Positions 37,943 to 55,363 of a stretch of 64,000 nt of DNA are shown here, in pieces. Position numbers and translations under genes: made by a program. The DNA lies in assembly GCA_002791275.1 (NCBI GenBank), contig PFWT01000007.1, positions 26,859-90,858 of the forward strand, given 5' to 3'. The notes below the pieces were generated by a model. The model was given only the letters and a program-made list of their open reading frames with translations, did not search any database and had not been told where the DNA came from. Numbering within the stretch: the stretch's first letter is position 1; each line of letters opens with the position of its first letter. Origin of the DNA: Candidatus Uhrbacteria bacterium CG_4_9_14_3_um_filter_41_35 (lineage in GTDB: Bacteria > Patescibacteriota > Patescibacteriia > UBA9934).

Positions 37943-37944
37943 AA

Positions 37945-40209
37945 TTAATTTTGATCGATATAAGAATCCCCTGCACTCAAGCCAAACTCAGTACTCATAA
38001 AATCTGCATACTGAGGATCTGTGGTTTTAACAATGTTTACAATTGACTGAACCGCTGTGTCGTCACCAGCTGCGTGATAGAGTACCGCTCTTGCGTGTAG
38101 TACTTTTGAGTGATCACGATAAACAGTCCAAATTCTGTCGACAATACTTATTGCAAGAGGCAAATCCATTTTTTTGTCATAATTATTGGCAATATCGGAA
38201 GCAATTCTTGGGTCACCGTAAATTGGATAACCACTCTTAGCAGCATCCATTAACACCGAGAAAGCAAGTTCATGATCGTGTTTTTCAAAAAAAGCAGACG
38301 CTGCCCGTACCCGAATCTCCCCTGAAAGAGCTGGCATTTTTCCCGCACGTTTTCCCGCATCAAGCAGATAACTCAGAGCTTCGTCTGGTTGATATTTAAC
38401 TAGGGCGATTTCAGCCAACTCCTGATACGCTTCTGTTCGATATGGACCAAACTGGATTGCAGTTTTCGCCAGTTCCTTCGCGTGATCAAGTCTGCTCGCG
38501 TCTGAAAAACTGAGCCAGCGGTTTACTTCAGCAGCAAAAATATATGAGCGGTAATCGTTCGGGTTGTTTTGTATTTGAATTTCAAATTGATCCGCAAGTA
38601 TGGTTAAATACCTCTCCATTGCTGGGGATTCATCGCCAATTTTTGCCCGGTTTGAAATTGCGTCGTGGGCAAAGAAAGTTAGTTCGTCATTTATATGCGT
38701 TTTATACTTAAGCGATTTTTCGTACAGTGAAACTGCCGTATCTAAATCACCTGATGACACAGCCAAAACACCTTTTGCGTTTAGTGAGCTCTGATAAAAA
38801 GGTAAGAATGTATACATGTACATTACATACGCCATTGGTAGAATGACTAGTAGTGACAACAGACCAGCATATTTATGGCTTAAAATTTTCATCTCACGAC
38901 CTGAAGCTTTAAAAGCTATTTTATCGTTATACAAAAATGCCAAAAAGCCAAAGAGCGACATTAGTCCAGGTAGAGTATTTGGCGTGTGAAATAAGAACAT
39001 TAAGTTCGTTATTTGACTCATAAAAAACGCAAACAAAACAATAAATATAATTTTTTTTGATTGATCCGTTTCAGTTAAACTCATTTTCAAAGATAACCAC
39101 AGTGTTGTTCCCCACAGATAAACGTAGCCAGAAAATCCGACAACACCCGTTAGAACCAGCATTTCGATAAATTGGTTGTGGACTTTGTCGTACCAAGTGT
39201 CCATTAAACTACCGTGAAAATTTGCTCGATCAATGTACAGGTTCCCTGGGATAACGAAGTTTTCAAGTCCCCAACCAAAAATTGGACGATCCATAAAACC
39301 CTGGAGCCCAATGTCCCAAACCTCAAATCTATCATTACCTAAATCAGAATAGACCATTCGTGAAATCACAAACGGCAGCTGATCCTTTACCGCGTCTTTA
39401 ACTGGTGCCGATCTAAGTAAAGCGAATGAGCCAATTATTACTGAAAAAATGGCAAGGGTTGCAAAGATAACACCAAAACGCGCTTTTCCTGTTAGGAAAG
39501 TTGCGGCGAGTAAGAGAAATCCAACAAATAGTGCCACTGCAAGTCCGAGTAATGGTCCGCGACTGGCTGAAAGAAGTAGCGCTATAATATTTACAGCAAT
39601 TGAAAATCCGTAAAATGCCTGCATTTTTCTCTCATCTTCCTTAAGCAAAAGAATTAAAGCAACGAATACCCCTACCAAAGCAAATACCCCAAGAAAAATT
39701 GGGTTACCCATTACTGAACTAATTCTTTTTTCAGCCAAACCATTCATCTGCATAAAACCAAAGAAGGACGCAACCAGAGCGGCGATATTGCTGGTAAAAA
39801 AGAAGGTCTTCCACTCTTTCCAGGTTTTGAAAACTGAAACCAGGATAAGAAAAAAGCTGAAATAGTGTAGATACTGAAATACCCCTGTCATTCTTGAACT
39901 TGAAGAAAAAAAGGAATTTGAAATATTTATACTAAATGGGAGCGTTATTAAAAGTGTGCAGAGAAATAAAATGACCGCATGAACCATTGGATTTCGTAAA
40001 TTCGGTCGATAGTCAGGAAAACGAGCTACTAAAATAATAAACGCCGCGACCATGATCTCAACAAATATCTGGATTAGCGAGGATTTTGAATAAAGGAATG
40101 GAAAATATGAATGTTGAGTAACAACAAGCGGTGACAAAATAGTTAACAACGCCGAGCCGGTTATTATTGCTAGTAATGTTTCTTTAAGCGAGAAGTCCAA
40201 CATTTTCAT
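37945..40209 (-). CDS. O-antigen ligase (Wzy_C)-like + TPR membrane protein, paralog
   Basis: Same architecture as 35693..37942, with shared segments ([11 protein letters not shown] / RGPLLGLAVA; FGWG/FGFGHN). Confidence 0.6.
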   Translation of the reverse strand: MKMLDFSLKETLLAIITGSALLTILSPLVVTQHSYFPFLYSKSSLIQIFVEIMVAAFIILVARFPDYRPNLRNPMVHAVILFLCTLLITLPFSINISNSFFSSSSRMTGVFQYLHYFSFFLILVSVFKTWKEWKTFFFTSNIAALVASFFGFMQMNGLAEKRISSVMGNPIFLGVFALVGVFVALILLLKEDERKMQAFYGFSIAVNIIALLLSASRGPLLGLAVALFVGFLLLAATFLTGKARFGVIFATLAIFSVIIGSFALLRSAPVKDAVKDQLPFVISRMVYSDLGNDRFEVWDIGLQGFMDRPIFGWGLENFVIPGNLYIDRANFHGSLMDTWYDKVHNQFIEMLVLTGVVGFSGYVYLWGTTLWLSLKMSLTETDQSKKIIFIVLFAFFMSQITNLMFLFHTPNTLPGLMSLFGFLAFLYNDKIAFKASGREMKILSHKYAGLLSLLVILPMAYVMYMYTFLPFYQSSLNAKGVLAVSSGDLDTAVSLYEKSLKYKTHINDELTFFAHDAISNRAKIGDESPAMERYLTILADQFEIQIQNNPNDYRSYIFAAEVNRWLSFSDASRLDHAKELAKTAIQFGPYRTEAYQELAEIALVKYQPDEALSYLLDAGKRAGKMPALSGEIRVRAASAFFEKHDHELAFSVLMDAAKSGYPIYGDPRIASDIANNYDKKMDLPLAISIVDRIWTVYRDHSKVLHARAVLYHAAGDDTAVQSIVNIVKTTDPQYADFMSTEFGLSAGDSYIDQN

Positions 40210-40217: not shown

Positions 40218-40871
40218 TTAAAAACAATACGCACCAACTAGTGAATTACAGATAAATAATGATGGCCCTGTTATAAAACCAAATACATTAAAATTGGAAA
40301 CAATGGAAACCAGAACCAGCATCATTAATATTTGTGAGCCGTATTGCATAATGATATTGCGGGCAGGTGCTAACGATGATCGATCCGGAATTGCCTCTAT
40401 AAGTTTTGAACCGTCAAGTGGCGGGATTGGGATTAGGTTGAAGAATAGTAGCGAAAGATTGACCATCGTTAACAGCTTCAAGAAGATAATCAGTAAATTA
40501 AAATCCGGTAAGCTGGCTACATCAATAAAAAATCTTGCGCCTAGTCCAGTAATTATTGCTAGTAGAAGATTTGAAATTGGCCCAGCGAGCGCTATGTGCA
40601 CTGCGTCAACTTTTGGATTTTTTAAGTTGTAAGGATTAAACATCACCGGTTTTGCCCAACCAAAACCTAGAAAAAGTAACATCAAAAAACCAAACGGATC
40701 GATGTGCGCTAACGGATTTAGTGTTAGTCGGCCCATATTTTCGGCAGTGTGGTCGCCTTTTTTGTAACTAATATATGCGTGAGCAAATTCATGAACTGTA
40801 AGCGCGATTAAAATAACAAGAAGCCAAATAATGGCGAGTTCAGGTGCGTGTAAAAATAAATCAAATATCAT
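40218..40871 (-). CDS. Site-2 protease family (peptidase M50) zinc metalloprotease
   Basis: HEFAHAY (HExxH) in a TM helix plus NLIPIPPLDG motif; 217 aa, about six TMs. Confidence 0.7.
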   Translation of the reverse strand: MIFDLFLHAPELAIIWLLVILIALTVHEFAHAYISYKKGDHTAENMGRLTLNPLAHIDPFGFLMLLFLGFGWAKPVMFNPYNLKNPKVDAVHIALAGPISNLLLAIITGLGARFFIDVASLPDFNLLIIFLKLLTMVNLSLLFFNLIPIPPLDGSKLIEAIPDRSSLAPARNIIMQYGSQILMMLVLVSIVSNFNVFGFITGPSLFICNSLVGAYCF

Positions 40872-40971: not shown

Positions 40972-41988
40972 TTATTGAGCAATTGCGGTTACTATAGCTG
41001 CTACAGAACATGTCCCGCTCACACCAGAATTCGGAATCTGAATCCCAAAATAAGCACTATCAGTTGGGGCAGAGTTTTCATTCGTTCTATGTTGCATCCA
41101 ACCAAGGCCAGTTGAAGTTTCAAAATTTAGATCTTGATTTGTCGTTGAAAAAGACGTTGTTAGTAGCTCGTAAATATTGTCATTTGTGCCAAATCTTTGA
41201 TTCGAAACCGGAATATTTGCTGAGCCAGGACCATCACAGGTCATTACAGCTGAGCTTGCTTGGATAGTCATATCAGCATCACTATTTCCATAAAGAGTAC
41301 CTAGCACAGAAATACCAGCCTGAGTTGCACCAAGTGACATCTGACCATAACTAATTGTTGACGAACCAAAGTTCATGGATAGAACTATATTTTTTGTAAA
41401 TGATGATGTAGCTGTTCCGGTTAAGGCAGTTGAGTCGTAAGCAATACCACTTAATTCCCAGTACGAAGGCGGGTAATCATTTGAGTCCATCCAGTATTCA
41501 AGGAGTGCACTACACTTATACCAAGCTGAAGTAGCGCCTTCTGTAAAATCTAGAGTGCAGGCAGAAATTCCACCCGTAGTTTGACCATCATAATTTGAAT
41601 AACAGTAATTACCGTCCTTTTCAGCAGCTGTATCACAATCAACAAGCGTTTTAGTATTTGGAATAACAGTATGATGAAACATCGCAACCCTCGCTTCTGC
41701 GATATCACCGTTACCGTTTAAATCCGAAATTTTCATGAACACATCAACCGGTGTTTGTGTGTTGGCGGAGCCGGTTACACCATTCAAACCTGTATACGGA
41801 TTACAGGAAGTCGCCCCTCCACTTGGACAGAGCTTTATCACGTCTATTGTTGGCGAAACCTGAGTGATCTGAACTGATGTTGTCTCCGTTTGTGAACGCG
41901 TTAGAACCAATGCAATAATAACAAACAAACCGATAAGCATTAATAAGCCTCCTGATATCCAATTAACTAAGTTATTGTCTTTTGTCAT
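40972..41988 (-). CDS. Paralog 1 of a tandem family: N-terminally anchored, Cys-containing secreted ~338-aa protein
   Basis: N-term MTKDNNLVNWISGGLLMLIGLFVIIALVL-TRSQTE. Conserved blocks VLSMNFGSSTISYGQMSLGATQAG, DGNYCY, AWYKC..EYWMD, C-terminus GVSGTCSVAAIVTAIAQ. Confidence 0.6.
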   Translation of the reverse strand: MTKDNNLVNWISGGLLMLIGLFVIIALVLTRSQTETTSVQITQVSPTIDVIKLCPSGGATSCNPYTGLNGVTGSANTQTPVDVFMKISDLNGNGDIAEARVAMFHHTVIPNTKTLVDCDTAAEKDGNYCYSNYDGQTTGGISACTLDFTEGATSAWYKCSALLEYWMDSNDYPPSYWELSGIAYDSTALTGTATSSFTKNIVLSMNFGSSTISYGQMSLGATQAGISVLGTLYGNSDADMTIQASSAVMTCDGPGSANIPVSNQRFGTNDNIYELLTTSFSTTNQDLNFETSTGLGWMQHRTNENSAPTDSAYFGIQIPNSGVSGTCSVAAIVTAIAQ

Positions 41989-42000
41989 ATATATTTAATA

Positions 42001-43011
42001 TTATTGAGCTACAGTTAAAATCGTTGCCGTTACTGAACAGGTTCCGCTTACGCCAGTACTTGGAATTTGAATACCGAAATAAACTGAGTCGGCTGGGTTG
42101 GTCGTTTCACTGGTTCGTGCAATTAATTTATTATCATTTGGATTATTTTCGAAATCCAAATCTTGAGCAGACGTCGAAAGTGCGCTCGCTAAAAGTTCGT
42201 AAGTATTATTATCTGTACCGAATCTTTGATTTAAAACTGGAATGTTTGCCGAACCCGGACCATTACAGCTCATTACGGCTGAGTTTGACTGAATTGTCAT
42301 ATCGGCATCGCTATTTCCGTAAAGAGTTCCGAGCACAGCAACACCCGCCTGCGTTGCGCCGAGCGACATTTGACCATAACTAATTGTTGATGAGCCGAAG
42401 TTCATTGACAGGACCGAGGTGTTTTCAAAAGTCGAACCTGTAATCAGAGAAGTTGATGTGGCAGTATCATAAATAACAGCGTCGATATTCCATGTTTGAC
42501 TTGAGTACTTTGAAAGTGGATCGGTTGCATCCATCCACGACTGTAAAGTTACACGACAACGCCACCAAGCTGAAGTAATACCTTCGGCTGAGTCAAAAAC
42601 ACAAGCATCTACCCCGCCCAATGTTTGATTATAAACATTGTTATAGCAATAATTTCCATCAACATTATTTGAACCCGCACAAGCGGCTGGACCGCCTATG
42701 CCAGACCGATACAGTGTTGTTTCAACTTTCGAAATATCACCATAGCCGTTTGGATCCGTAACTTTTACAAGCACATCCATTGCCTTGGGTGCGTTAGCAT
42801 TCCCAAGATAATCCGATATCTGCGGACACGATGTAGCAAGGCCAGTGTCACACAATTTAACAGAGGCCAAAGTAGGAGCCTGCTGACTAACCGAAACGGA
42901 AGTAGTCTCAGTTTGCGATTTTACCACCGCCAGCGCAATGATAATCAGTACTGCAATCACGATTAGCAGTGCACCAACAAACCAACTTAGAAATTCACTA
43001 TTTTTTTTCAT
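42001..43011 (-). CDS. Paralog 2 of the tandem anchored secreted-protein family
   Basis: Same blocks, including AWWRCRVTLQSWMDATD; ends GVSGTCSVTATILTVAQ. Confidence 0.6.
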   Translation of the reverse strand: MKKNSEFLSWFVGALLIVIAVLIIIALAVVKSQTETTSVSVSQQAPTLASVKLCDTGLATSCPQISDYLGNANAPKAMDVLVKVTDPNGYGDISKVETTLYRSGIGGPAACAGSNNVDGNYCYNNVYNQTLGGVDACVFDSAEGITSAWWRCRVTLQSWMDATDPLSKYSSQTWNIDAVIYDTATSTSLITGSTFENTSVLSMNFGSSTISYGQMSLGATQAGVAVLGTLYGNSDADMTIQSNSAVMSCNGPGSANIPVLNQRFGTDNNTYELLASALSTSAQDLDFENNPNDNKLIARTSETTNPADSVYFGIQIPSTGVSGTCSVTATILTVAQ

Positions 43012-43018
43012 ATAATAA

Positions 43019-44038
43019 TTATTGAGCTACGGATAAAATTGTGGCAGTTACTGAGCAGTTTCCGCCAACACCTTCACTGGGTATTTTAATACCAAAGTAA
43101 ACGTAATCAGACGGATTTGTGGTTTCGCTAGTTCTTGCGATTAACTTGTTGTCGTTTGCATCACTTTCAAAATCTAGATCCTGTGGTGCTGTAGAAAGCG
43201 CGCTAGCCAAAAGTTCGTATGCAACATCGTTAGTGCCAAAACGTTGATTTTCAACCGGAATAAAACCTGAGCCTTGGCCATCACAAGTCATCAGTGAGGC
43301 ATTCGCCTGAATTGTCATATCGGCATCTGTGTTACCATATAAAGTTCCAAGCACCGCCACCCCTGCGCTTGTGGCGTTTAGCGGAAGCTGACCGTAATTA
43401 ATGGTCGATGAACCAAAGTTTATGGAGAGTACAGAAGCATTTTCAAAAGTTGCCATTTTCCAAATACTATTCAGGGCCGAATCCTGAGCCCAAGCCTGGA
43501 TTTGCCAATTTTCCGTTGGGTATTTTGACTGATCATCCGTGGCGTCCATCCATGGTTCGAACGTTACAGTACATTTCCACCAGGCTGCAGATGCAGTGTC
43601 GCTCGAATCAAATACGCACTGAGAGATACCTGCATTGTTGCCAAAATTGATATTATTATAGCAATAATTACCGTCCTTATTACCGTTCACTGAAGCATTC
43701 ATACATTGCGCCAGTGGAATTGCGCTTCTATGAACTGAAATGCGAAGACTTGCAATGTCATTATAACTATTTCCGTCTGTAATTTTTGCCCAAACATCAG
43801 CCTGCGTTTGTGTATTTGGACTGCCCACAAAAGTTGAGAGTGCCGTGCAGTTAGTACCAGCCACATCGTTAGCTGGACACAATTTTACAAGATTAAGTAT
43901 AGGTCTTGACTGGGCCACAACTACCGTCGATGTATCTGCTTGCGATTGTAGTAAAGCAAACGAAAGAATGACAAGTAGTCCTATCAGAACTAATGTCCCC
44001 GCGACAACCCAAGAGGTATCTTTCGTTTTTAAAAGCAT
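43019..44038 (-). CDS. Paralog 3 of the tandem anchored secreted-protein family
   Basis: Same blocks, including AWWKCTVTFEPWMDATD; ends GVGGNCSVTATILSVAQ. Confidence 0.6.
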   Translation of the reverse strand: MLLKTKDTSWVVAGTLVLIGLLVILSFALLQSQADTSTVVVAQSRPILNLVKLCPANDVAGTNCTALSTFVGSPNTQTQADVWAKITDGNSYNDIASLRISVHRSAIPLAQCMNASVNGNKDGNYCYNNINFGNNAGISQCVFDSSDTASAAWWKCTVTFEPWMDATDDQSKYPTENWQIQAWAQDSALNSIWKMATFENASVLSINFGSSTINYGQLPLNATSAGVAVLGTLYGNTDADMTIQANASLMTCDGQGSGFIPVENQRFGTNDVAYELLASALSTAPQDLDFESDANDNKLIARTSETTNPSDYVYFGIKIPSEGVGGNCSVTATILSVAQ

Positions 44039-44042
44039 ACAA

Positions 44043-45062
44043 TTACTGCGCGACCGAAAGAATGGTTGCTGTTACCGAGCAAGTTCCACTAACACCCGAA
44101 TTTGGAATTTGGATACCAAAGAAGACAGAATCAGTTGGGTTAGCAGTTTCACTAGTTCGAGCCAATAATTTATTACCGTTCGCCGAGGTTTCAAAATCTA
44201 GATCTTGCGCAAAAGTAGTGAGTGAACTTGCAAGGAGCTCATAAACAACGTCATCTGTGCTGAATTTTTGATTACCAACTGAAATACTAGACGAGCCAGG
44301 ACCATCACAAGCCATGGAGTTTACGTTAGCCTGAATTGTCATATCAGCGTCGCTGTTTCCATACAGCGTGCCAAGGACTGCCACCCCAGCCTTGGTTGCT
44401 CCGAGCGACATCTGACCATAACTAATTGTTGTTGAACCAAAATTCATTGAAAGGACTGAGGTATTTTCGAAAGTAGCAAGTTTCCAATTATTATTTGAAA
44501 CCGAGTCTTGGGCCCATGACTGAATCATCCAGTTTTCTGCCGAATATTTTGAAAGGGCGTCTGTTGCATCCATCCATGGTTCAAAGGTGATCGTACATTT
44601 CCACCAGGCAGTCGTAGCACTCACACTTGAAACAACAGTGCAGGCAGTGATACCAGCGTCGTTACCGAAGCTCATATTGTTATAACAAAAATTGCCGTCT
44701 TTGTGACCGTTCACCGATGCGTTCATACAACTGGCCAACGGAATTCCACTTCTGTGAACCGATGTAGTGAGTCTGGTCACATCTCCGTAACCATTGAGAT
44801 CAGTAACGTTAAGCCAAATGTCTGCCTGCGTTTGCGCGTTCGGACTACCTAAAAAATTAGCGATGCCTAAACAATCAACTCCAGCAGGATCGTTAAACGC
44901 ACAGAGCTTCACAGAATTAATTGCTGGTGCGACCTGACTAACCTGAACCGAGGCGATTTCTGCTTGTGATTTTGTTAGAACTATTGCACTAATGATAAAT
45001 AAACCAATAAGAAGTAGCGCACCCCCTAGCACCCAATTCATTAGACTATTTTCTTGCGTCAT
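44043..45062 (-). CDS. Paralog 4 of the tandem anchored secreted-protein family
   Basis: Same blocks; ends GVSGTCSVTATILSVAQ. Confidence 0.6.
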   Translation of the reverse strand: MTQENSLMNWVLGGALLLIGLFIISAIVLTKSQAEIASVQVSQVAPAINSVKLCAFNDPAGVDCLGIANFLGSPNAQTQADIWLNVTDLNGYGDVTRLTTSVHRSGIPLASCMNASVNGHKDGNFCYNNMSFGNDAGITACTVVSSVSATTAWWKCTITFEPWMDATDALSKYSAENWMIQSWAQDSVSNNNWKLATFENTSVLSMNFGSTTISYGQMSLGATKAGVAVLGTLYGNSDADMTIQANVNSMACDGPGSSSISVGNQKFSTDDVVYELLASSLTTFAQDLDFETSANGNKLLARTSETANPTDSVFFGIQIPNSGVSGTCSVTATILSVAQ

Positions 45063-45208
45063 AATACTTTTTTTAACTCAAATATTTAATCTAATTATAG
45101 CAAACTATTTTATTAATTTCTTTTCTTATTAACAGATAAATAAATTTTCGAGTCAAACTTAAAGCCACCCATTAATGGATGGCTTTAAACTTTTTTTCCT
45201 CCGTTATA

Positions 45209-45415
45209 CTATCTAATGTCTACTTTTGTTGAAAGAGTTTCAGTTGGAATAAATACTGACATTTCAACTTCGGATGATCCGGCTTCTTCTGTTCTAACAG
45301 GTGCAGGAGACGGTGCAACGATTACACTGTTCTGACCTGATGCAAGAGAGATCACCAACCAAGCAGTCAATAAAGTAACAACAACGGCAAGGATTGACAG
45401 AATATTGTTATTCAT
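45209..45415 (-). CDS. Small hypothetical membrane protein (68 aa)
   Basis: Single TM helix. Lies between paralogs 4 and 5. Confidence 0.3.
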   Translation of the reverse strand: MNNNILSILAVVVTLLTAWLVISLASGQNSVIVAPSPAPVRTEEAGSSEVEMSVFIPTETLSTKVDIR

Positions 45416-45436
45416 AAATCTCGCGTTAAATGTTAT

Positions 45437-46468
45437 TTAGTGATTAATTGCTGCCAAAGTTGCTGCTACAGTACATGTTCCACTAACTCCAGATGCAGGA
45501 ATACCGATTCCAAAAAATACAGTATCTGATGGAGCAACAGTTTCACTTGTTCGAGCCAACAGCTCATTATCATTAACATTAACCTCAAAGTCAAGATCCT
45601 GTGGTGAGTTTGAAAGTGCACTTGCAAGTGCTTCGTAAGCACTATCGCTTGTTCCAAATCTCTGATTAGCAACTGGGATATTTGCGCTACCTACTCCGTC
45701 ACAAGTCATAACTGCTGAGTTAGCTGCGATTGTCATATCTACGTCTGAGTTTCCCTGAGCTGTTCCCAAAACTGAGACACCAGCTTTAGTTGCACCAAGA
45801 GACATTGGACCATAGCTAATTGTTGATGATCCGAAGTTCATCGAAAGAACTGTGTTATTTCTGAATGTTGAAGGATTTACTGAGATACCAGTGTTGCTTT
45901 GCGAGTCAACAACTATCGCATCCATAGCCCAGTTTTCTGCTGCAAAGTTTGATGAAGGGTCGGTTGCATCCATCCAGTACTGAAGTGTTACATCACACTT
46001 CCACCAAGCTGATGTTGTACTTACAATATCATTTTGAGCACATGAAAGAATTCCTCCTGAAGTTTGTCCATCGTAGTTTGAGTAACAGCTGTTTCCGTCA
46101 TACTCAGATCCAGCACCAATCGAACCGGTGTTACAAGCCGCTAGTCCAACTGAGCTTCGATAAAGTGATCCACCAACTGAAGCGATATCACCGTAACCGT
46201 TAGCATCCGAAACCTGAACAAACAAATCCATCTCTGTTGATGTAGTGTTTGCACCGGTAAACTCTGACACACCAACACATGAGCCTACTGCTACTGCTTC
46301 GTTGATACAAAGTTTTACTGCATCAACTGTTGGTGTAGCCTGAGTAATCTGAACGGTTGTTGTTTCTGTTTGAGATCTAGTTAGCACCAAAGCGATGATA
46401 ACAAAGAGCCCGATGAGGAGCAATGCGCCTCCAAGCACCCAGTGGGTGGCATTGTTTTCTTGAGCCAT
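45437..46468 (-). CDS. Paralog 5 of the tandem anchored secreted-protein family
   Basis: Same N-terminal anchor (HWVLGGALLLIGLFVIIALVL-TRSQTE) and blocks; ends GVSGTCTVAATLAAINH. Confidence 0.6.
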   Translation of the reverse strand: MAQENNATHWVLGGALLLIGLFVIIALVLTRSQTETTTVQITQATPTVDAVKLCINEAVAVGSCVGVSEFTGANTTSTEMDLFVQVSDANGYGDIASVGGSLYRSSVGLAACNTGSIGAGSEYDGNSCYSNYDGQTSGGILSCAQNDIVSTTSAWWKCDVTLQYWMDATDPSSNFAAENWAMDAIVVDSQSNTGISVNPSTFRNNTVLSMNFGSSTISYGPMSLGATKAGVSVLGTAQGNSDVDMTIAANSAVMTCDGVGSANIPVANQRFGTSDSAYEALASALSNSPQDLDFEVNVNDNELLARTSETVAPSDTVFFGIGIPASGVSGTCTVAATLAAINH

Positions 46469-46679
46469 AAAAATATTTTCTATTTTTAATTAATTTTTAT
46501 AAAAATATTATACCACCTTTCAGAATTTTATTTATAACTTTAAAGTGATATTGTCCACAGGTCATCCGGCTTACTATCGTTAATGCTTTCTTCAGTAACA
46601 GAATCTGGAATTTTTTTTGCGTCTGTACTAATTTTTACATCAGTAGTTTCTAAAATATTTTTTACCGGATTAGTTTTAG

Positions 46680-48413
46680 TTATAGGTGTTTGAACTGGTG
46701 TTTGAACTGGTGTTTGAACTGGTGTTTGAACTGGTGTTTGAACTGGTGTTTGAACTGGTGTTTGAACTGGTGTTTGAACTGGTTTTGAACTGGTGTTTGA
46801 ACTGGTGTTGTTACTTGTGGTATCTGAGGTTGTAGAGGAGATGGAGATGCTGGTATTTGTGTAGTTCCAAAAGAGGCAGAACCTAAAGGATTAGCTTCAA
46901 CCGTCACACCTTCGGACTGAGCACTCGTGCGGTCTTTGTCGCTAATTGTTCCATCTTGGTTTGAGTCAATTGTTACCGTTGCCGTAATCCAAGTGCCCAC
47001 AGTTAAAGTGTTTGATGCTGGCACAAACTGCCAGGCTACACCCTCCAGTTTTGTGGTTCCGATGATCACTTTGTTGGCGTAAATATTTATCACCGATCCA
47101 ACCTTCCCTGAACAAGTACCTGTAATAACTGGGCTGTTACTAAATATCGGTGAGTTAACCACCGGTGGTTCCACTTGTTTTCTTTTCCTAAAGAAGAACC
47201 AGAGAATACCAAAAGCGAGCAACACTATTAGTGAAATTAGTAGTGTCCAAATATACCCCCATTTATCGGCAGGCAGTACCTCGGCAACCGCAAGCGATTT
47301 AGCTGTAACGTTAACATTCAAATTTTGTGTATTTGAAACTTTATTTCCAAACTCTACATAACCCACCATTTTGTAATCACCTTCATTTGAAAATTCAGTG
47401 AAAGAACGAAAAGTTGTGATCTCGTCTCTACCAACAGAAAAAGATTTTCCTACCAAGGTATCTAGAAGTTGATCGTCGGCTGAATAAATTTCGATTATCA
47501 TTCGGCTAAGAACCGGGATGGTTCCAGTATTTCTAAAAGTTCCAAGCATCACCACCTGTTCGTTTGGTGCGTAACTGTCCTTTGAAGCCGAGAACGAAGA
47601 AAGCTCACCACTTTGTTTTAAAGTTCCGGGTGAAAAAACTTGTAGATCTTCTGTGGTTGCAAAAACCACTTCTCCGCCAACCAAGAATTTAATCTCACCT
47701 TTATACTGACCAGCTGGTAGTTTTGATTCAAAGTCTACTAACTCTGACCTGGTCTCCCCCGGTCGCCAAGGTCCGATTTTTTTACCATCAAACGTTTCGG
47801 TTGTAATTAAATTTCCGCTACCTGCGTCAAAAAAACTAACCGTTATTTCGTCCGGTCGCCACTCCGTATTTCCATTATTCACCACCTGAAAACCTAAAAT
47901 AATAGACAGAAGCTCTTCAGTCTGTGGGAAGTTTACATTTGTAATATCAAAGTCAATTACCTGCTTATCTGAAACTGAAAAGTCGAGCATTAGCTGCACA
48001 CCACGTCGCAAAATCGTTCCAGCTCCTTTATCCACCCCACCCTCACCAGTTTGTGGTAAAAATAACACTTTTGCATTATAACTTCCGATCGCTGCCTCTT
48101 TTGGTAAAATTGAAAACTGGTACGGAACAATTGTTACACCTTGTGGAAAAGTAATCATGTCTGGTCCCTCAAGAAATCGGGCATCTTGACCTTGAAATTC
48201 AACCGCAAAAGTTTCCGCAGTTGGTCCTTCGTTACGCAAAATATTTACAGTTACCACCTGACCATATTCCCGAGTAATATCGTTTACAACAACAGACGGT
48301 GGTGAAATTCCCAGAGTTGCGAAAGCGAAATTTGGCGCCAGGAATAAAAAAGCTCCCAAAAGCATTGTGCATAACCTGAAAAAATTTCTAAATTTTAATT
48401 TTTCCCCCAACAT
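46680..48413 (-). CDS. Secreted family-B protein: signal peptide + GISPPSV motif + C-terminal TM + Ig-like tail + repeat C-terminus
   Basis: Signal peptide MLLGAFLFLAPNFAFA|TLGISPPSV. TM WGYIWTLLISLIVLLAFGILWFFF then basic RKRK. C-terminal ~110-aa beta-rich domain, then a (TPVQ)n/(FKHQ)n repeat tail. Confidence 0.6.
   Translation of the reverse strand: MLGEKLKFRNFFRLCTMLLGAFLFLAPNFAFATLGISPPSVVVNDITREYGQVVTVNILRNEGPTAETFAVEFQGQDARFLEGPDMITFPQGVTIVPYQFSILPKEAAIGSYNAKVLFLPQTGEGGVDKGAGTILRRGVQLMLDFSVSDKQVIDFDITNVNFPQTEELLSIILGFQVVNNGNTEWRPDEITVSFFDAGSGNLITTETFDGKKIGPWRPGETRSELVDFESKLPAGQYKGEIKFLVGGEVVFATTEDLQVFSPGTLKQSGELSSFSASKDSYAPNEQVVMLGTFRNTGTIPVLSRMIIEIYSADDQLLDTLVGKSFSVGRDEITTFRSFTEFSNEGDYKMVGYVEFGNKVSNTQNLNVNVTAKSLAVAEVLPADKWGYIWTLLISLIVLLAFGILWFFFRKRKQVEPPVVNSPIFSNSPVITGTCSGKVGSVINIYANKVIIGTTKLEGVAWQFVPASNTLTVGTWITATVTIDSNQDGTISDKDRTSAQSEGVTVEANPLGSASFGTTQIPASPSPLQPQIPQVTTPVQTPVQNQFKHQFKHQFKHQFKHQFKHQFKHQFKHQFKHL
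46685..46803 (-). repeat. 12-nt tandem repeat (ggtgtttgaact, ~10 units) with one 11-nt unit
   Basis: Eight perfect units, then ggttttgaact (11 nt), then one more unit. Reverse-complement frames encode VQTP or FKHQ. Confidence 0.75.
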
Positions 48414-48659
48414 AATCTTATAAATTTTTATCAGTATTAATTTTATCTGATTTTGTGTCGTTTTCGTTTTTGCAAATTTCACAATTTTGTTTGCGACTTT
48501 TCTGTTCAGAAACAAACGCAAAAACCAAAGTTGCTACAAAAAACCCTACAAAAAAACCTTGTATCAAAGTTGAACTTATCATAACACCAATCTCTATTCT
48601 CATTAACTTTTGGACAGCTTGCAGTCCTAAAATAATGTTTTCCATGATATTATTATACC

Positions 48660-49205
48660 ATGCCTCTAGTTGCTATAAAATATATCGCCAACTCATTCGC
48701 TTTGTTACTGTTCATAACTATACTCGGCGGATTTTTACATTTCTTCATTATTGAGTTTACAGAGATCAACGGTGTTTCAATGGAACCCACCTATATTGAT
48801 ACGCAAAAAGTAATTATCAATAAGATAACCCCGCTCCTCACACCACTCAAACGCGGAGAAACTGTAAGTTTGTTTGATGAATATCGCGAGCTCCTGCTCA
48901 TTAAACGTGTTGTTGGCCTGCCCGGTGAACAAATTGTGATTCGTGATGGCGCTGTATATGTTCGAGATCAGTTTGGGAATGAAAATATTTTAACCGAACC
49001 GTATATTCAAAATTCTGTGCTCACAAAACCAAAAATTGGGAACGAAGAGCTCTACCCAATTCTTGGTCCGCACGAATATTTTGTTCTAGGTGATAACCGT
49101 GGCCGAAGTACAGACTCCCGCATTTATGGCTCAGTTGATCGATCGCAAATTGTTGGTGTTGTCTTCCCTATTCCTTTCGCTTCTTCATCGCGAGCACAAA
49201 ACTAA
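48660..49205 (+). CDS. lepB: Signal peptidase I
   Basis: N-terminal TM; catalytic Ser box GVSMEPT, Lys box LIKRVVGLPGE, box E GDNRGRSTDSR. Confidence 0.8.
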   Translation: MPLVAIKYIANSFALLLFITILGGFLHFFIIEFTEINGVSMEPTYIDTQKVIINKITPLLTPLKRGETVSLFDEYRELLLIKRVVGLPGEQIVIRDGAVYVRDQFGNENILTEPYIQNSVLTKPKIGNEELYPILGPHEYFVLGDNRGRSTDSRIYGSVDRSQIVGVVFPIPFASSSRAQN

Positions 49206-50025
49206 CTACGTATAAAAATATTAGTACCGACGAACCAATCAAAATATAGTCAATTGTTTTATCCCTCTTCAAAACTGAAAGAGGGAATTTATTTTCAGAA
49301 ATTTTTTCACCATCGTGCAAAACTTCTACTGTTAGTGTGTAATCACCGGCTTTTAGCCGAAAATCTTCAGAAATTTTAGTGACGCTCGGTGGAAGAGAAA
49401 CTAGCGTCCCTTCATTCACTGCCAAAACGTCACCCGCACCATTAGTTAACTCAGACTTGTAACTTATTCCGGTCAAATAATCAGAAGCTGGGTTCATTAA
49501 ATTGTAAGAAATATTCACTGCGGAAGCAATAACACCACTGTCGATTCTCTTTGCAAAATCCTGAGCGTGCGGAGCGTTTTGCATTACAAAATTATGATAG
49601 TCAGCGGTATTTAAAACAGAGAGGTGTAAATTTCCGCTCACTCCTAGAAAAAACATTACTCCCGGCTGTGTCATTACTGATTTTGAAGATTGAACAAACT
49701 GAATTTGTTTATCGTAAGTACCAGGCGCGAGATCTTGCGCGTCTACCTCAAATGTAAACGGAACCATTGTTTCACCGGTCTCAAAACTAACGTTTTTGCC
49801 ATTTACAAAATTTACATATGGCGAATCCTCTGTTTGAACTTCAAGCAGCTCTGGTTTTTGTGATTGGTCACGTAAAACATTGTACTTTACAATATTTTTT
49901 TCACCTTCTTTTACCGTTGAGTACACAGACGGTGGTGAAATTCCGTACGAAATCGCCTGCACTGGTTGTACATTTAAAATCAGTACTGAAAAAATAAATA
50001 GCAGTAAAGTTCCTCGCTTAATCAT
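49168..50025 (-). CDS. Secreted family-B paralog (285 aa)
   Basis: Signal peptide ...LNVQPVQA|ISYGISPPSV; C-terminal TM ILIGSSVLIFLYVVSFVLA + KKRKE. Confidence 0.55.
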   Translation of the reverse strand: MIKRGTLLLFIFSVLILNVQPVQAISYGISPPSVYSTVKEGEKNIVKYNVLRDQSQKPELLEVQTEDSPYVNFVNGKNVSFETGETMVPFTFEVDAQDLAPGTYDKQIQFVQSSKSVMTQPGVMFFLGVSGNLHLSVLNTADYHNFVMQNAPHAQDFAKRIDSGVIASAVNISYNLMNPASDYLTGISYKSELTNGAGDVLAVNEGTLVSLPPSVTKISEDFRLKAGDYTLTVEVLHDGEKISENKFPLSVLKRDKTIDYILIGSSVLIFLYVVSFVLAMKKRKE

Positions 50026-50029
50026 AGTT

Positions 50030-51322
50030 TTAGATTACCTCTATATTAGCTCCAATTGCTCTAAGTTTACCATACAAATCCTCGTAGCCTCGCTCCAAAT
50101 GATCAACGCCATCAATAACCGAGGTGCCCTTAGCCGCAAGCGCTGCTGCAACGTAAGCAAGACCAGCACGGATATCAGGAACTGTCATATTTTGCGCAGT
50201 GAGTTTCGAAGGCCCGTTAATCACGGCCGACTGCTGATAGTGCATATGTCTAAACCGTCCCTGCACCTGATCTGGTAGGTATTCAATGTGGATGTCCGCC
50301 CCCATCTTATTTAGAGTTTCTGTGTATTTAAACCGATCTTCCAGCACAGTTTCGTGAACGATTGATTGACCCTCAGCCTGGGTGAGTGCCACCACAAACG
50401 GTTGTTGCCAGTCAGTTGAGAACCCTGGCGCTGTGTCGGTTGTAATTGTTACTGGTTTATATTTCTCTGCACCTTTGAACAAAATACCGTCATCGCGAAC
50501 CTCATAAACACCACCAATTTGGCGAACAGCGTTTAAGAACGTGATCATGTGGTCTTGCCGAGCGCCCTCGCAAAAAATCTCTCCGCGAGTAGCAAGCGCA
50601 ATCGACGCATAAGACGCTACTTCTAACCGGTCCGGCAAAATTTCGTGTTCGCAACCGTGCAATTTTTCAACACCAATAATTGTAATGTTGCGTCCAGCAC
50701 CAAGCTCAATGATCGCCCCCATTTTCTGAAGCATCATAATCATGTCAATAATCTCCGGCTCGATTGCTGCGTTTTTAATCTCCGTCTTACCCTGCGCTAA
50801 AACGCCGGCATAAATAATTGTTTCAGTTGCTCCAACTGACGGATAACCAAGTTCAACCGACGCCCCCTTGAGGCGACCATTCACCTTGAAGTGCCAGCCA
50901 GCTTCATCTTCTGTGAACTCCGCCCCCATTCTCTGCAGAGCGTCCACATGAAAGTTAACTGGTCGCGGACCAATTTTGTCGCCACCCACTCGCGTAACGT
51001 GTGCCTCGCCTGCTCTGTGGAGTAACGGCGCTGCCAGCAAAATTGATAGTCGATTTTTTCGTGACTGTTCCAAAGTTGAAGTTGAAGTAATCTCTTTGGT
51101 TTGTGTAGTAAAAGTGTGATCGTGCAGTTCAGTTTTTGCGCCAATCATTTCAAGGAGCTCGCGCGCAATTTCGTATTCTTGATTCAAGGGAACATTGCGA
51201 AGCATAACCTCCTTGTCTGTGAGTAAGGTCGCGATCAACTGTTTTGAAACAGCATTTTTTGCTCCCGCAATTTTAACTCGACCCTTAAGTGGCGCACCTC
51301 CTGTAATTCGTAGTTCTCGCAT
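50030..51322 (-). CDS. murA: UDP-N-acetylglucosamine 1-carboxyvinyltransferase
   Basis: MRELRITGGAPLKGRVKIAGAKNA; EPSP-synthase-fold length of ~430 aa. Confidence 0.9.
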   Translation of the reverse strand: MRELRITGGAPLKGRVKIAGAKNAVSKQLIATLLTDKEVMLRNVPLNQEYEIARELLEMIGAKTELHDHTFTTQTKEITSTSTLEQSRKNRLSILLAAPLLHRAGEAHVTRVGGDKIGPRPVNFHVDALQRMGAEFTEDEAGWHFKVNGRLKGASVELGYPSVGATETIIYAGVLAQGKTEIKNAAIEPEIIDMIMMLQKMGAIIELGAGRNITIIGVEKLHGCEHEILPDRLEVASYASIALATRGEIFCEGARQDHMITFLNAVRQIGGVYEVRDDGILFKGAEKYKPVTITTDTAPGFSTDWQQPFVVALTQAEGQSIVHETVLEDRFKYTETLNKMGADIHIEYLPDQVQGRFRHMHYQQSAVINGPSKLTAQNMTVPDIRAGLAYVAAALAAKGTSVIDGVDHLERGYEDLYGKLRAIGANIEVI

Positions 51323-51424
51323 AAAACAGGTTAATATTCTAATCCTTCTTATTATAGTGATATTCACAGCTTATCATATTTCAGAACAAAAAAAAGACCC
51401 TGGGTGCGTACCCAGGGTCACCAA

Positions 51425-52780
51425 TTACTGCGTTTTCCAGTAGAGCATCATCGCATGACGCTCCTTCGAGTCCCACGACAGCCTTGGCCACCAAAGTGGA
51501 CAAAGGTAGTCAAAGAGTTGCGCAGCTTGGTAGGTGCTATGTCGATCACCACCAGTTGAGGTTTGAGTTGAGAGGTATTCGCGAGCGGTGGTCACGATTT
51601 GCTCAACTCGACTGGCAATTATTCGATTGTCGTACTCAATCTGCCTGGTAAACCGCCCGATTGTCTTAGTGTCCCAATAGTCCCTGTGACTATTCTTGTT
51701 AACGCCACCGGGATCAGGGATTTTTTCGAGCGGTCCGGTCCAAATACGCTTATGCGTGTACTCACTGAAAAACTCGGCATCGGACTTTGTGGCTGCTCGT
51801 CTAGTTCCGGTGCGTCCAACAACCGAAACAACGATGTACATCCAGCCACCACGATCCGCCACAGCCTTCTTTGACGAACCTTGAACGCAGTAACGCTCCT
51901 TCTTTTCCACGGCACGTTCCAGACTCTTGTCTCGACTAACGTGCCGAATTTCCCAGATCTCGTCGTCGATCTCGACAGTTCGCAGTTCCCACAGCTCTTT
52001 TTCTTCATGAACTGTTAGACCCTGAAGACGCATCTCATGAGCTTTTCTTTTGTCTTCAGGAATACCTGAACCAGCTTCAACTAATTCACGTTCGAGTTGC
52101 TCGGCAGACTCCTTGATCGACTGTCGAAGATCAAGCGCGGCTCGATGTGCTTCCGCCTTTGATTCAAAAAACAGTGGTTGTCCAAGCGCTCGGCTTGAGT
52201 TTGCAGGGTTGGTTTCAATCACGATCCAGAGCTTCACAAACTGGCCAGTAAACATTTTACGTAGCGCAATTTCTTCGATTTGCGAGAGATTCTCAGCAAC
52301 ATCCGCCTCTGACTCAACTACATCCCAAGAAAGTAGCTGGAGCGCAAACACAAACGATCGTTGCGCCTCTTCTCTAGTCCTAATGTCCTGCTCGGACAAT
52401 TCCGGACTATCCGGAACTGTTGCCATTTTGAACAAGCGAATTGGCTCAAGAGCAACCTGTACTGGTCCAAAAGAATCAAGCGCTGAAAAACGTTGCTTGA
52501 GCGGACCTGTAATTAGGCTATTGAAGTACTTTCGTGACTGATCGATCTTTCGTTGCAGGTCCTTGTAAAACTCGTTCGCACCCATCGCGGCAACTAACGA
52601 TTCTTCCCCGCGATACTCCCGATTCACTTGGCAAAACGCCATAAACAGTGCGACCTTCTTACAGGTTGCTCGCTTCTCAAGTGTCATTTCATAGAGCTCC
52701 CGCATCCTCATTACAAGGGGCACGAACTCTGTAAAACTAATGAAATGCTCTTCTTTATCCGGATAAAAGTAACCCGTCAT
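51425..52780 (-). CDS. Hypothetical protein (451 aa), elevated GC
   Basis: Long ORF at ~52% GC in a ~40% GC background. No assignable motif. Confidence 0.55.
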   Translation of the reverse strand: MTGYFYPDKEEHFISFTEFVPLVMRMRELYEMTLEKRATCKKVALFMAFCQVNREYRGEESLVAAMGANEFYKDLQRKIDQSRKYFNSLITGPLKQRFSALDSFGPVQVALEPIRLFKMATVPDSPELSEQDIRTREEAQRSFVFALQLLSWDVVESEADVAENLSQIEEIALRKMFTGQFVKLWIVIETNPANSSRALGQPLFFESKAEAHRAALDLRQSIKESAEQLERELVEAGSGIPEDKRKAHEMRLQGLTVHEEKELWELRTVEIDDEIWEIRHVSRDKSLERAVEKKERYCVQGSSKKAVADRGGWMYIVVSVVGRTGTRRAATKSDAEFFSEYTHKRIWTGPLEKIPDPGGVNKNSHRDYWDTKTIGRFTRQIEYDNRIIASRVEQIVTTAREYLSTQTSTGGDRHSTYQAAQLFDYLCPLWWPRLSWDSKERHAMMLYWKTQ

Positions 52781-52919
52781 TTTGTACCTCTCTTGTTAAA
52801 AAGAACCGTCCTTGTTATGGATCTAAGCAATTTTTGAGCTTTTAGTCAATACTCAGATTAACTAAAAACACGTTAAAAAGTATATTTTGAACGTATTTTA
52901 GTACTGGACTATGATTAAT

Positions 52920-53873
52920 CTATATCGCCGTTATAATCCCGCCGCTTGTACAGGTACCTGAAATACCAGTGTTTGGCACCAAAATCGACCAGTAAATTTC
53001 ATCAAACGACCTGTTCTTAGTTGTTCTTTGTGGCAAATTCACTGCCCGATATTTCACAGCTTCAATATTTAACGCATCCGAAGTTTCACTTTTCTCCATT
53101 TCGTTGTACGTTCCAGACGTCACATCAATCCTTTGTGCTGAAACCGGAATTATTCCCCGGTCACAAACCATATCTTCAAAACGAACTTGCAAATCAGCGT
53201 CTACATTACCTATATTTTCGATAATAGCTGGCTCGGTAGCTGTACGTGATTCACCTGGATAAAGCTCACCGTAATCAATAACTTCAGGTAATGCCAGTTG
53301 AAGCAGTGTTTCCACCTCGTTAACATAGCTTCCATGCACCACTTGATCGTTGATTGTGTTTTGAAGCGCTATCTTCATCTGCCAATTTTGATCTACGTAT
53401 TTTGAACGACTGCCAACAGTTGCATCCATCCAGTACTCAAACCTTACCTTACAAAGTAAGGTACCACCCAGCGCTGATTGTGGCGTAAAGTAACAATCAT
53501 TATTTTCCGTTGAAAGCCGATAACAATTTTGCGGATCCGAAGTGCAGTTTTCGCCAGTCTCGAGTCCTGAGCGGTAAAAAACAATATCAGTTTCCCCAAT
53601 CTCTCCCACACCATTTAAATCTTCAAGGTCAGCAATTATATAGTAAGTTGTCGTAGTGCCACCAGTCAAAGTTATTGAGTTCACATTTCCGTCTTCTTTG
53701 AGACCAGTACGGTTAATGGCTATTGTTTTAACTTGAGAGGGATGATCGCGAATAATGATAATGGCGGAAGTTGCATTAGTTTTTAAAAATGGTAGCAGTA
53801 GCAAAAAACTAAAAATCAAAATCACGAGTGAAATTATTATTGGTAACCTGTAGCGCTCTATAAAATTTTGCAT
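52920..53873 (-). CDS. Divergent sixth member of the anchored Cys-containing secreted family
   Basis: N-terminal TM (LPIIISLVILIFSFLLLLPF). Shares CKVRFEYWMDAT and the C-terminal GISGTCTSGGIITAI with paralogs 1-5. Confidence 0.5.
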   Translation of the reverse strand: MQNFIERYRLPIIISLVILIFSFLLLLPFLKTNATSAIIIIRDHPSQVKTIAINRTGLKEDGNVNSITLTGGTTTTYYIIADLEDLNGVGEIGETDIVFYRSGLETGENCTSDPQNCYRLSTENNDCYFTPQSALGGTLLCKVRFEYWMDATVGSRSKYVDQNWQMKIALQNTINDQVVHGSYVNEVETLLQLALPEVIDYGELYPGESRTATEPAIIENIGNVDADLQVRFEDMVCDRGIIPVSAQRIDVTSGTYNEMEKSETSDALNIEAVKYRAVNLPQRTTKNRSFDEIYWSILVPNTGISGTCTSGGIITAI

Positions 53874-53878
53874 ATACT

Positions 53879-55363
53879 TTACACGGTAACTATCACAATG
53901 TTCGAGTAGTCACTTTGTTTATCTTTTAAATTAACCACTCCGTCGTGGTTTGCGTCAACCCGAACACTAGCAATGACCTGCGCGCCGATTGAAAGTGTAT
54001 TCGCTGGCACGTTAATTGCCCAAATTCCGTGCCCCACCATTGTTAAACCGAGTGAAACACCGTTTACTATAACTTCAATTAAAGCCCCATCTTTTTCGAT
54101 TGAAGTCCCGGTAATCTGCGGTGAAGTTATTCTGATTGGTGTATTTATCTTTGGTGGCTTCGTGTACACCGCCTTTTTATGTACCGCTACAAACAGTCCT
54201 ATGAACATGAGCAACAAAGCAGACAAAATAATCAGCAAATAATTTATAGTTTTTTCTATTATAGGGCTCGCAATTGCAAGATCTGAAGTTTTGGTTTCAG
54301 AAGTTCTGTTACCATATTCAACATAAGATAAAATCCGAAATTCACCTTGGTCGGTCATTGGGAGTATCTGATTAAATGTAACTGTCTCCCCTATCGAAAC
54401 TTTGATTGGTTCTGTTTTTAAAATATCAACAATCGACTCACCATCATAAACCTCGGTCACCATATTGGCAAAATAACTGGTTTCGCCGTTATTAGTGAAA
54501 ATTGCGTTAAACTGTACTAGCTCACCAGACGTATAACTTGTTTTGTCAAAAATAACCGAACTCAAAACCCCAGATTGTTTTAATACTCCCGTACCATAAA
54601 TTTCGAAATTGCTTGTTGTTGTATCCGTCTTGTCTTTATATTGAAAGTCAACAACCAGTGTATACTCACCACGATTCAAGGTTGAAAAGAGGTCGATTAT
54701 GTGAGTGTGAGTTTCGCCAGGTTCGGTAAATTCGAGATCTGACCCCGAGACAATTTTTTCTTCAATTAACCTACCTCTATTATTAAAAAGTGAAGCCGTT
54801 ATAAAATCTGGCTTCCAGTTCAGGTTTCCGTTATTTTTGATTGTATAGTTAATAAACAATGGTAAACCCTCCTCCGTTTGGATTGGTGTCATTTTTATTA
54901 CCTCGTAGTCGAGCTTTTCAGTATTTGAAACAGTAAAATGTATCTGCAAAGTAACACCACCTAAAACATTTACCGCACCTAAATGGGCATTGTTCTGATT
55001 TGCAGGCTGTATTCCTATAAAGTCTATTTCAGCAGAATAATCACCGTTTGTAAGTGAACTGGCTATAATTTGAAATTTATATACCAGCTGGCTTTCGCCC
55101 GCTTCAAAAGATATTTGCTCTGCACCTTTTATAAAAGACTTGGCATCACCTCTAAATTCAACCTTAACCGCCGACGCTTTTGAAACATCACCACTGCGCG
55201 TTAAAATTACTTGGTCGTTGTGTGGGACGTCATTTAAGATATCGTGACTTATAATTTCTGCTGGTGACACCCCTATTCCTGCAAAAGCAAAACTAGGCGC
55301 ACAAACAATTAGTGACGATAATAATATAATTACGTAAAAAAATATTCCCCCTTTATTTCTCAT
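53879..55363 (-). CDS. Secreted family-B paralog (494 aa)
   Basis: Signal peptide ...CAPSFAFA|GIGVSPAEI; TM INYLLIILSALLLMFIGLFVAV + HKK. C-terminal Ig-like tail homologous to the 46680 protein (ITSPQITGT.. / VITGTCSGKVG..). Confidence 0.6.
   Translation of the reverse strand: MRNKGGIFFYVIILLSSLIVCAPSFAFAGIGVSPAEIISHDILNDVPHNDQVILTRSGDVSKASAVKVEFRGDAKSFIKGAEQISFEAGESQLVYKFQIIASSLTNGDYSAEIDFIGIQPANQNNAHLGAVNVLGGVTLQIHFTVSNTEKLDYEVIKMTPIQTEEGLPLFINYTIKNNGNLNWKPDFITASLFNNRGRLIEEKIVSGSDLEFTEPGETHTHIIDLFSTLNRGEYTLVVDFQYKDKTDTTTSNFEIYGTGVLKQSGVLSSVIFDKTSYTSGELVQFNAIFTNNGETSYFANMVTEVYDGESIVDILKTEPIKVSIGETVTFNQILPMTDQGEFRILSYVEYGNRTSETKTSDLAIASPIIEKTINYLLIILSALLLMFIGLFVAVHKKAVYTKPPKINTPIRITSPQITGTSIEKDGALIEVIVNGVSLGLTMVGHGIWAINVPANTLSIGAQVIASVRVDANHDGVVNLKDKQSDYSNIVIVTV

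Follow-up and report, generated by a model that had tools for sequence, protein, structure and literature searches.

What purpose might a signal peptidase gene serve when it lies, on the opposite strand, among genes for secreted and membrane-anchored proteins? The question is raised by a 64-kb stretch of the genome of Candidatus Uhrbacteria bacterium CG_4_9_14_3_um_filter_41_35 (contig PFWT01000007.1, positions 26,859 to 90,858), hereafter the window, in whose coordinates positions are given. In it, a type I signal peptidase (SPase) gene is surrounded by three genes, P1, P2 and P3, whose products belong to one family, the P-family; close by are a tandem array of paralogous genes, the array family (A), and two genes for small membrane proteins, s1 and s2. 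The answer that we consider probable is that, in bacteria of the candidate phyla radiation (CPR), a core of P and A genes has been joined by a predicted-active P-type SPase I, s1 and s2 to form a conserved module for surface proteins with immunoglobulin-like (Ig-like) domains.

This answer is carried by gene linkage. On the contigs of five P-family homologues that are 26-31% identical to P1 or P3, an S26 gene was found beside the P gene in all five cases. The flanking genes vary: at loci L008 and L009 they are Uhrbacteria-like (NDK, murA, M50 and rpsL), L061 is flanked by the ATP synthase operon and rplC, and L062 by rpoC and purine genes. Two SPase homologues used as seeds both proved to adjoin P and A genes, one between dnaK/dnaJ and recJ (L064) and the other, from Nomurabacteria, near PPDK and ftsZ (L065). 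A P-family-seeded metagenome scan, annotated with our own hidden Markov models (HMMs), added 14 loci. Three of these (L067, L070 and L075), in which the contig ends too near the P gene, were left out as uninformative, and the SPase is present in each scan locus with enough flank except L074 (L068, L069, L071, L072, L073, L076/L077, L078, L079 and L080). With near-identical contigs counted once, the SPase adjoins the P-family and the array family in 16 of 17 informative CPR loci, and A adjoins the P-family in all CPR loci examined. Functional coupling is supported because the SPase keeps its place beside P, A, s1 and s2 in these 16 loci with unrelated flanks; that it is not a chance neighbour of the two families is likewise supported. 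Of the dedicated secretion and processing pair that an earlier note on this DNA had proposed, the pairing thus stands on its linkage in 16 of 17 CPR loci, but the accompanying analogy with SipW does not, the enzyme being a P-type Ser/Lys peptidase.

Between ~37.9 and 57 kb of the window all substantial ORFs (open reading frames) are on the minus strand except the SPase gene, which, as had been noted before, is the only real plus-strand gene of the region and is convergent with P2, the two 3' ends overlapping by 38 bp. The P+A pair is present twice, as P1 followed by the array and as P3 followed by a divergent array-family gene. The features, with transmembrane abbreviated to TM, are as follows.

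53879..55363, minus strand: P3, a P-family protein of 494 aa, with a predicted cut after AFA28, a GVSP motif, three Ig-like sandwiches, TM helix 368-401 and an Ig-like tail.
52920..53873, minus strand: divergent array-family paralogue of 317 aa, 5 bp downstream of P3 and completing the second P+A pair.
49168..50025, minus strand: P2, a short P-family paralogue of 285 aa, with a signal, GISPPSV, two beta domains, a C-terminal TM segment and KKRKE.
48660..49205, plus strand: SPase I, P-type, 181 aa, with an N-terminal TM anchor, Ser40 in GVSMEPT, Lys82 in IKRVVGLPGE and box E GDNRGRSTDSR.
48418..48645, minus strand: s1, a conserved small membrane protein of 75 aa, with its stop 4 bp before the P1 start.
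46680..48413, minus strand: P1, a P-family protein of 577 aa as read in the window; the undisrupted gene would span 46540..48413.
46685..46809, no strand assigned: 12-bp tandem repeat in the P1 tail; of its 10.5 copies, the third lacks 1 nt (~46784).
46540..46569, minus strand: out-of-frame remnant encoding the PDDLWTISL and stop of P1 orthologues.
46540..46569 of the window, with L007:2500-2544, L008:11730-11773 and L009:11370-11413: DD(L/M)WTISL peptide.
45437..46468, minus strand: array-family type I protein of 343 aa, with a conserved N-terminal hydrophobic segment, an SQT/SQA site and two Ig-like sandwiches.
45209..45415, minus strand: s2, a conserved small protein of 68 aa, with an N-terminal TM segment and a C-terminal twin [ET][ST]V.[IV] motif.
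44043..45062, 43019..44038, 42001..43011 and 40972..41988, minus strand: four more tandem array-family paralogues.

The conserved order of the CPR module is short P / SPase / s1 / long P / A / s2 / (A). The SPase and s1 genes adjoin those for P and A in the window, L007-L009, L061, L062, L064, L065, L068, L071-L073 and L077-L080, and in the CPR loci annotated s1 is always next to the module SPase. A short, P2-type paralogue stands beside the SPase in most CPR loci. The s2 gene lies after the first A gene and was found in L007-L009, L061, L062, L064, L065 and L071. murA, which had been counted as part of the surface-protein locus, accompanies the module, together with a 451-aa ORF and the M50 gene, in Uhrbacteria-like loci only and is absent from it elsewhere. 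The divergent start codons of SPase and s1 are 14 bp apart in the window (48645..48660), L007 (826..841) and L008 (9779..9794), and the promoters of the two genes must therefore lie within each other's coding regions.

In one lineage two SPase I genes stand in tandem (L076:11714-12589, L077:10987-12147). The one beside s1 has a product of 172 aa that reaches 172 bits on the profile of linked SPases; that of the other, of 208 aa, scores 115 bits and falls in another clade of a neighbour-joining (NJ) tree. At least that lineage therefore has a module-type SPase as well as a generic one.

The P-family is also found in 51 loci of DPANN archaea. An array-family profile built from CPR sequences only matches genes directly adjacent to the P gene in at least 24 of these 51 loci, so that the two core families of the module co-occur in DPANN. 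The archaeal P gene sits in large clusters of secreted proteins (L010-L060, for example L036:91-14970 and L013:5592-17170), which include a recurrent ~200-aa protein, winged-helix-regulator-like by eye, a polytopic membrane protein with HEFGH, and coiled-coil proteins. Ten proteins of these clusters were scanned and gave no credible Pfam match (all E>0.004, below cutoff).

Turning to the enzyme, the SPase matches PF10502 (Peptidase_S26) with 110.3 bits against a cutoff of 22.9, and TIGR02227 with 104.9 bits against a cutoff of 47. Its best relatives with a solved structure are the Gram-positive SPases 4nv4 and SpsB (4wvh), with which the Ser and Lys boxes align. Ser, Lys and box E are kept in 15 of 15 module-linked SPases. 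On this sequence evidence the enzyme is a bacterial P-type SPase I (MEROPS S26A / TIGR02227) with a Ser/Lys dyad that is predicted to be catalytically intact. Only bacterial-type S26 models were listed for it at E<=0.1, and no model of the endoplasmic reticulum (ER) or archaeal type. It is not SipW-like, since it matches the bacterial TIGR02227, has Lys at the base position and has no ER or archaeal model listed. There are also matches to the models for conjugative TraF (39 against a cutoff of 100) and the Ni-SOD maturation protease (39 against 63), both sub-threshold.

The proteins of the P-family are related to each other as had been proposed. Within the window, tblastn aligns ~500 aa of P1 and P3 (31% identity, E 2e-71) and the first ~90-117 aa of P2 and P1 (~30% identity, E 6e-7). 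Judged from these alignments, P1, P2 and P3 are true paralogues, and they share a motif just after the signal: with a hyphen marking the predicted cut, the N-termini read NFAFA-TLGISPPSV in P1, SFAFA-GIGVSPAEI in P3 and PVQA-ISYGISPPSV in P2, which places G(I/V)SP 2-4 residues past the cut. The AFA that had been described before the cut in all three holds for P1 and P3, but P2 has VQA. All three have a single hydrophobic segment at each end, the C-terminal one being followed by RKRKQ, KKRKE or HKKAVYTKPPK, in agreement with the single C-terminal TM segment and basic stretch reported previously. A beta-rich tail after the TM segment is common to P1 and P3, at ~90 aa rather than the ~110 aa first given. 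This tail matches the NCBIfam model Ca_tandemer with E 2e-6, below cutoff, and in the AlphaFold2 (AF2) model of P3 its strands occupy residues 416-467 at a pLDDT of ~60-76. As it is located after the TM segment and a basic stop-transfer sequence, the Ig-like tail is predicted to be cytoplasmic. This is an unusual site for such a Ca_tandemer-like domain (53879..54163 in P3, 46899..47174 in P1).

P1 stops at 46680 because one nucleotide is missing from the third unit of its 12-bp repeat. In six further assemblies, where the repeat encodes (VQTP)n and is present in 2 to 14 copies, P1 extends by ~55 residues to end in KPDDLWTISL; in the window this tail is still encoded out of frame, with the restored stop at 46540-46542. 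The copy number of the VQTP repeat differs between assemblies of one population (the window and L001-L006). The deletion that truncates P1 may be an assembly error or a switch resembling phase variation. Long P-family proteins end in a conserved acidic-hydrophobic DD(L/M)WTISL, past a Pro-rich linker and on the predicted cytoplasmic side, and this peptide looks like a short docking motif for a cytoplasmic partner.

A word-indexed homologue search with P3 returned two proteins only; an exhaustive profile search returned 2,451 cluster representatives at E<=1e-3, 466 of them at E<=1e-30 and most of them ~400 aa long. The ~400-aa subfamily, with the motif GVSPxxxxFxxVLRGGYAE, belongs to DPANN archaea (Woesearchaeota, Pacearchaeota, Diapherotrites, Altiarchaeota and Nanohaloarchaea), so that the family is both bacterial and archaeal. 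Among 60 aligned members from the two domains of life, the Gly of the motif is invariant and its Ser and Pro are at least 90% conserved, with the predicted AXA cut 0-4 residues upstream of GxSP. Conservation of these three residues is far beyond chance. A comparison of GISPPSV with the cognate signals of SipW substrates had been suggested. It is equally conserved in DPANN homologues that have no linked SPase, and the GxSP motif is therefore a feature of the protein instead of a tag for the peptidase.

The AF2 model of P3 (pLDDT 72) consists of a signal helix, three beta-sandwiches, a TM helix (residues 368-401) and a small C-terminal beta domain, with the GISPPSV-type motif just before strand A of domain 1. 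Foldseek searches with this model returned generic tandem Ig/ASH/macroglobulin (MG) proteins only, and a comparison of the P-family profile with the PDB found no sequence relative with a solved structure. Pfam scans of the 60 members matched CARDB in 21 (E<=0.01), DUF7507 in 14 and ASH in five, and no named family; in P3, CARDB (PF07705) is above its gathering cutoff at residues 273-360 (25.2 bits against 22.7). These matches map to domains 2 and 3 and not to the first domain. The idea that GISPPSV opens an ASH/PapD-like domain is unsupported, as the Pfam ASH and CARDB matches fall on domains 2 and 3. Taken together, and as far as sequence allows, the P-family is a large unnamed family of bitopic surface proteins of CPR bacteria and DPANN archaea. 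Its architecture comprises a cleavable Sec signal, two or three tandem Ig-like (CARDB/ASH-like) sandwiches and a C-terminal TM segment, to which some members add a cytoplasmic tail. Matches also occur in three other bins, metagenome-assembled genomes (MAGs) assigned to Chloroflexia (L047), Methanoregulaceae (L059) and Campylobacterales (L055); in L047 and L059 the reading frame is broken up into several short ORFs. Mis-binning, pseudogenes or transfer may account for these three.

The array family comprises five tandem genes in the window, at 40972..46468, and the gene at 52920..53873. An AF2 model of an array protein (pLDDT 83) has an N-terminal helix (residues 7-32) and two Ig-like sandwiches, of which the first domain is variable in sequence and the second conserved, with several conserved cysteines. 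A fold search with this model gave no specific fold relative and no TasA match, and a search of the PDB with the array family gave no sequence relative. A TasA-like fold was rejected on the basis of Pfam, fold and PDB searches. The proteins were also considered as type IV pilins and rejected on reading the sequence, since WVLGG follows the leader MAQENNATH, a G/A-F/M site is absent and there is no Glu at +5. One array-family homologue of 452 aa (P0167) carries an N-terminal extension of 'GENxGWIxF'-type repeats ahead of its Ig domains.

It is in the array family that a distinctive signal is found. The N-terminal hydrophobic segment of the type I array proteins, WVLGGALLLIGLFVIIALVL, has a pairwise identity of 91%, compared with 36% in the mature part, and over a broader set of CPR proteins these values become 50% and 34%. 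The P-family, which had been singled out in the earlier note, has ordinary signal peptides of ~20% pairwise identity against 33-35% for the mature part, and the conserved N-terminus belongs to the array family instead. The array segment is followed by a conserved (R/K)SQ(A/T)-(E/D) site, the hyphen again marking the cut, which is consistent with the -3/-1 rule. Conservation of 91% is atypical for a cleavable signal peptide. A locus search with a pattern in this segment found nothing. On these comparisons, the array proteins are likelier special clients of the module SPase than are the P proteins, and a conserved array signal encoded beside its own peptidase is, by analogy, the pattern of SipW substrates. 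The predicted mature N-terminus of the array proteins (ETTSVQITQ, TSATVTN) is unstructured in the AF2 model, and it resembles the twin C-terminal [ET][ST]V.[IV] motif of s2.

Directly after the array, in the window as well as in L008 and L009, there is a gene for a Peptidase_M50 (site-2 protease), at 40218..40871 in the window; it is not found in other CPR lineages. A relationship between this protease and the polytopic HEFGH protein of DPANN was rejected, as their HMMs resemble each other in the HExxH turn only. The M50 gene is followed immediately downstream, at 35693..40209, by two neighbouring genes for polytopic proteins of ~750 aa, one of which (37945..40209) has a Wzy_C (O-antigen-ligase-like) domain. 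A similar polytopic pair also adjoins the module in L077.

Several observations weigh against a dedicated role for the SPase in the module. Locus L074 has P and s1 and no SPase on its 8.6-kb contig, and no SPase, s1 or s2 occurs within ~8 kb in any of the 51 DPANN loci. The enzyme shares 38-45% identity with ordinary SPases from other phyla, its sequence bears no mark of special specificity, and in a crude NJ tree of 131 SPases the linked enzymes do not form one clean clade. The array model lacks a specific fold relative. Finally, tblastn found no second SPase copy within the window and no SPase from the source organism was among 120 homologues listed, so that the enzyme could be the genome's only, housekeeping copy.

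The last point leads to the alternative that survives best, namely that the enzyme is a housekeeping LepB, the genome's only general SPase, which lies here by inherited gene order or beside its most abundant cargo and has no special tie to its neighbours as substrates. CPR genomes are tiny. The enzyme has all the catalytic boxes of a standard P-type SPase, and the lack of a second copy in the window, the imperfect monophyly of the linked enzymes in the tree and the archaeal P homologues that do without a linked SPase all count in favour of this explanation. Against it, adjacency has outlasted a full turnover of the flanks in 16 of 17 loci, and neutral synteny would not be expected to persist where the P proteins are only 26-31% identical across the linked lineages. 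In addition, L077 has a generic second SPase beside the module-type one, and the SPase is always paired with s1. A purely housekeeping role is a serious possibility, albeit an unlikely one.

A second alternative is that the SPase homologue acts mainly as an assembly chaperone, binding subunits without cleaving them, as do streptococcal SipA/LepA in sortase-pilus islands. There is precedent for a P-type SPase homologue inside a surface-fibre operon (PMC4049620), and a peptide-binding cleft could also hold a subunit. Both dyad residues and box E are, however, kept in all 15 linked CPR enzymes, which suggests from the sequence that, unlike SipA, these are enzymes, and Pfam scans of ten genes at 40-57 kb gave no sortase match. 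A chaperone role thus seems very improbable. As for a SipW/TasA-type system, in which a dedicated SPase of the ER type would read GISPPSV as the cognate signal on fibre substrates, the gene arrangement does resemble tapA-sipW-tasA, but this reading is already contradicted on its defining features and retains almost no credence, as the SPase matches the bacterial TIGR02227 and has Lys and not His, the P and array proteins have no listed match to the SipW-dependent signal (NCBIfam) or to TasA/camelysin/Peptidase_M73 (Pfam), the array fold is two Ig sandwiches without a TasA match, and the motif is also kept by archaea in which no SPase is linked.

The conserved CPR module thus remains the preferred explanation, and a way of working can be proposed for it from the observed homology, domain architecture, SPase type with its catalytic residues and gene linkage; the cleavage sites, the specificity of the SPase for module proteins and the function in a surface structure are predicted. 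The module SPase, possibly together with s1, would cleave the N-terminal signals of the exported proteins of the module at the membrane. P proteins would stay anchored by the C-terminal TM segment as a stalk or platform of Ig domains. Array proteins would be freed from their conserved N-terminal segment after SQA or SQT, and might then form an adhesin layer or fibre at the cell surface, either by display or by polymerisation.

It is attractive to go further and to regard the module as the biogenesis locus of an undescribed surface appendage or adhesin-display system common to CPR and DPANN, although we hold this extension only tentatively and think it rather doubtful. Array proteins would then polymerise or dock through strands exposed by signal cleavage, on a membrane platform of P proteins; a specialised SPase I, together with s1, would in CPR recognise the conserved N-terminal segment of the array proteins, and the long P protein might tie the structure to the cytoplasm through its Ig-like domain and the DDLWTISL C-terminal peptide. 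More speculatively, the likeness between the mature N-terminus of the array proteins and the s2 motif recalls, by analogy, the strand complementation of TasA and TapA (PMC10151520).

Literature searches found no description of a P/SPase/s1/A/s2 module, and apart from the peptidase no part of it matches a named family of Pfam or NCBIfam or the sequence of a solved structure. It is nonetheless conserved across Parcubacteria-type CPR lineages. CPR and DPANN are two radiations of ultra-small episymbionts, which are thought to be attached to host cells, and apart from type IV pili little is known, to our knowledge, of the machinery by which they attach. If the coupling is real, the module supplies definite candidates for the structures that have been seen on the surface of ultra-small cells.

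Among known systems, conjugative TraF, which acts in pilin maturation, and the Ni-SOD maturation protease are similar in that an S26 enzyme is encoded beside its specific substrate, but the scores to both models are far under the cutoffs and the gene context is unrelated. The WxL/Csc operons of Lactobacillales pair a TM-anchored Ig-like protein that has a signal peptide with unanchored exported partners, often several paralogues. The WxL-interacting protein consists of DUF916, DUF3324 and a C-terminal TM segment. The Ig-like, TM-anchored P protein with its exported partner paralogues resembles this arrangement, and faint WxLIP_HBD matches occur in P2 (17.2 bits against a cutoff of 28.9) and in one DPANN homologue. 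Pfam scans gave no DUF916 or WxL domain match, and the P proteins are not assigned to the WxL-interacting proteins. We know of no SPase described in WxL/Csc loci.

The SipA/LepA proteins of Streptococcus pyogenes FCT and S. pneumoniae PI-2 islands provide another parallel, with an SPase-family gene inside a surface-protein cluster that has Ig-like products. SipA is a P-type SPase-family protein encoded in a pilus island and required for assembly of the Ig-like fibre subunits, and it has lost both catalytic residues (PMC4049620). In the CPR module, by contrast, the dyad is intact in all linked copies, and there is no sortase match among the ten genes scanned.

Like the tapA-sipW-tasA operon of Bacillus subtilis and sipW-calY of B. 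cereus, the module has an SPase gene among the genes for exported surface or matrix proteins. In the former, the fibre subunit is expressed together with SipW and with TapA, an accessory protein of Ig fold, and an N-terminal strand exposed by cleavage serves assembly (PMC10151520). In both cases an Ig-fold accessory gene adjoins that of the peptidase and the substrates have a distinctive N-terminal signal. The differences lie in the parts. SipW is an ER/archaeal-type SPase, whereas the enzyme here is of the P-type with Ser and Lys; the subunits here have two Ig domains and no similarity to TasA or camelysin; and the accessory protein here has three Ig domains and a C-terminal TM anchor, and is accompanied by two extra small membrane proteins. 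In kind, the CPR locus is a familiar one, a peptidase-linked surface-protein operon, and its novelty lies in the unnamed client families and in their unusual distribution over CPR and DPANN. If the coupling is real, it would place a third kind of surface assembly with a linked peptidase beside SipW-TasA and the SipA pili.

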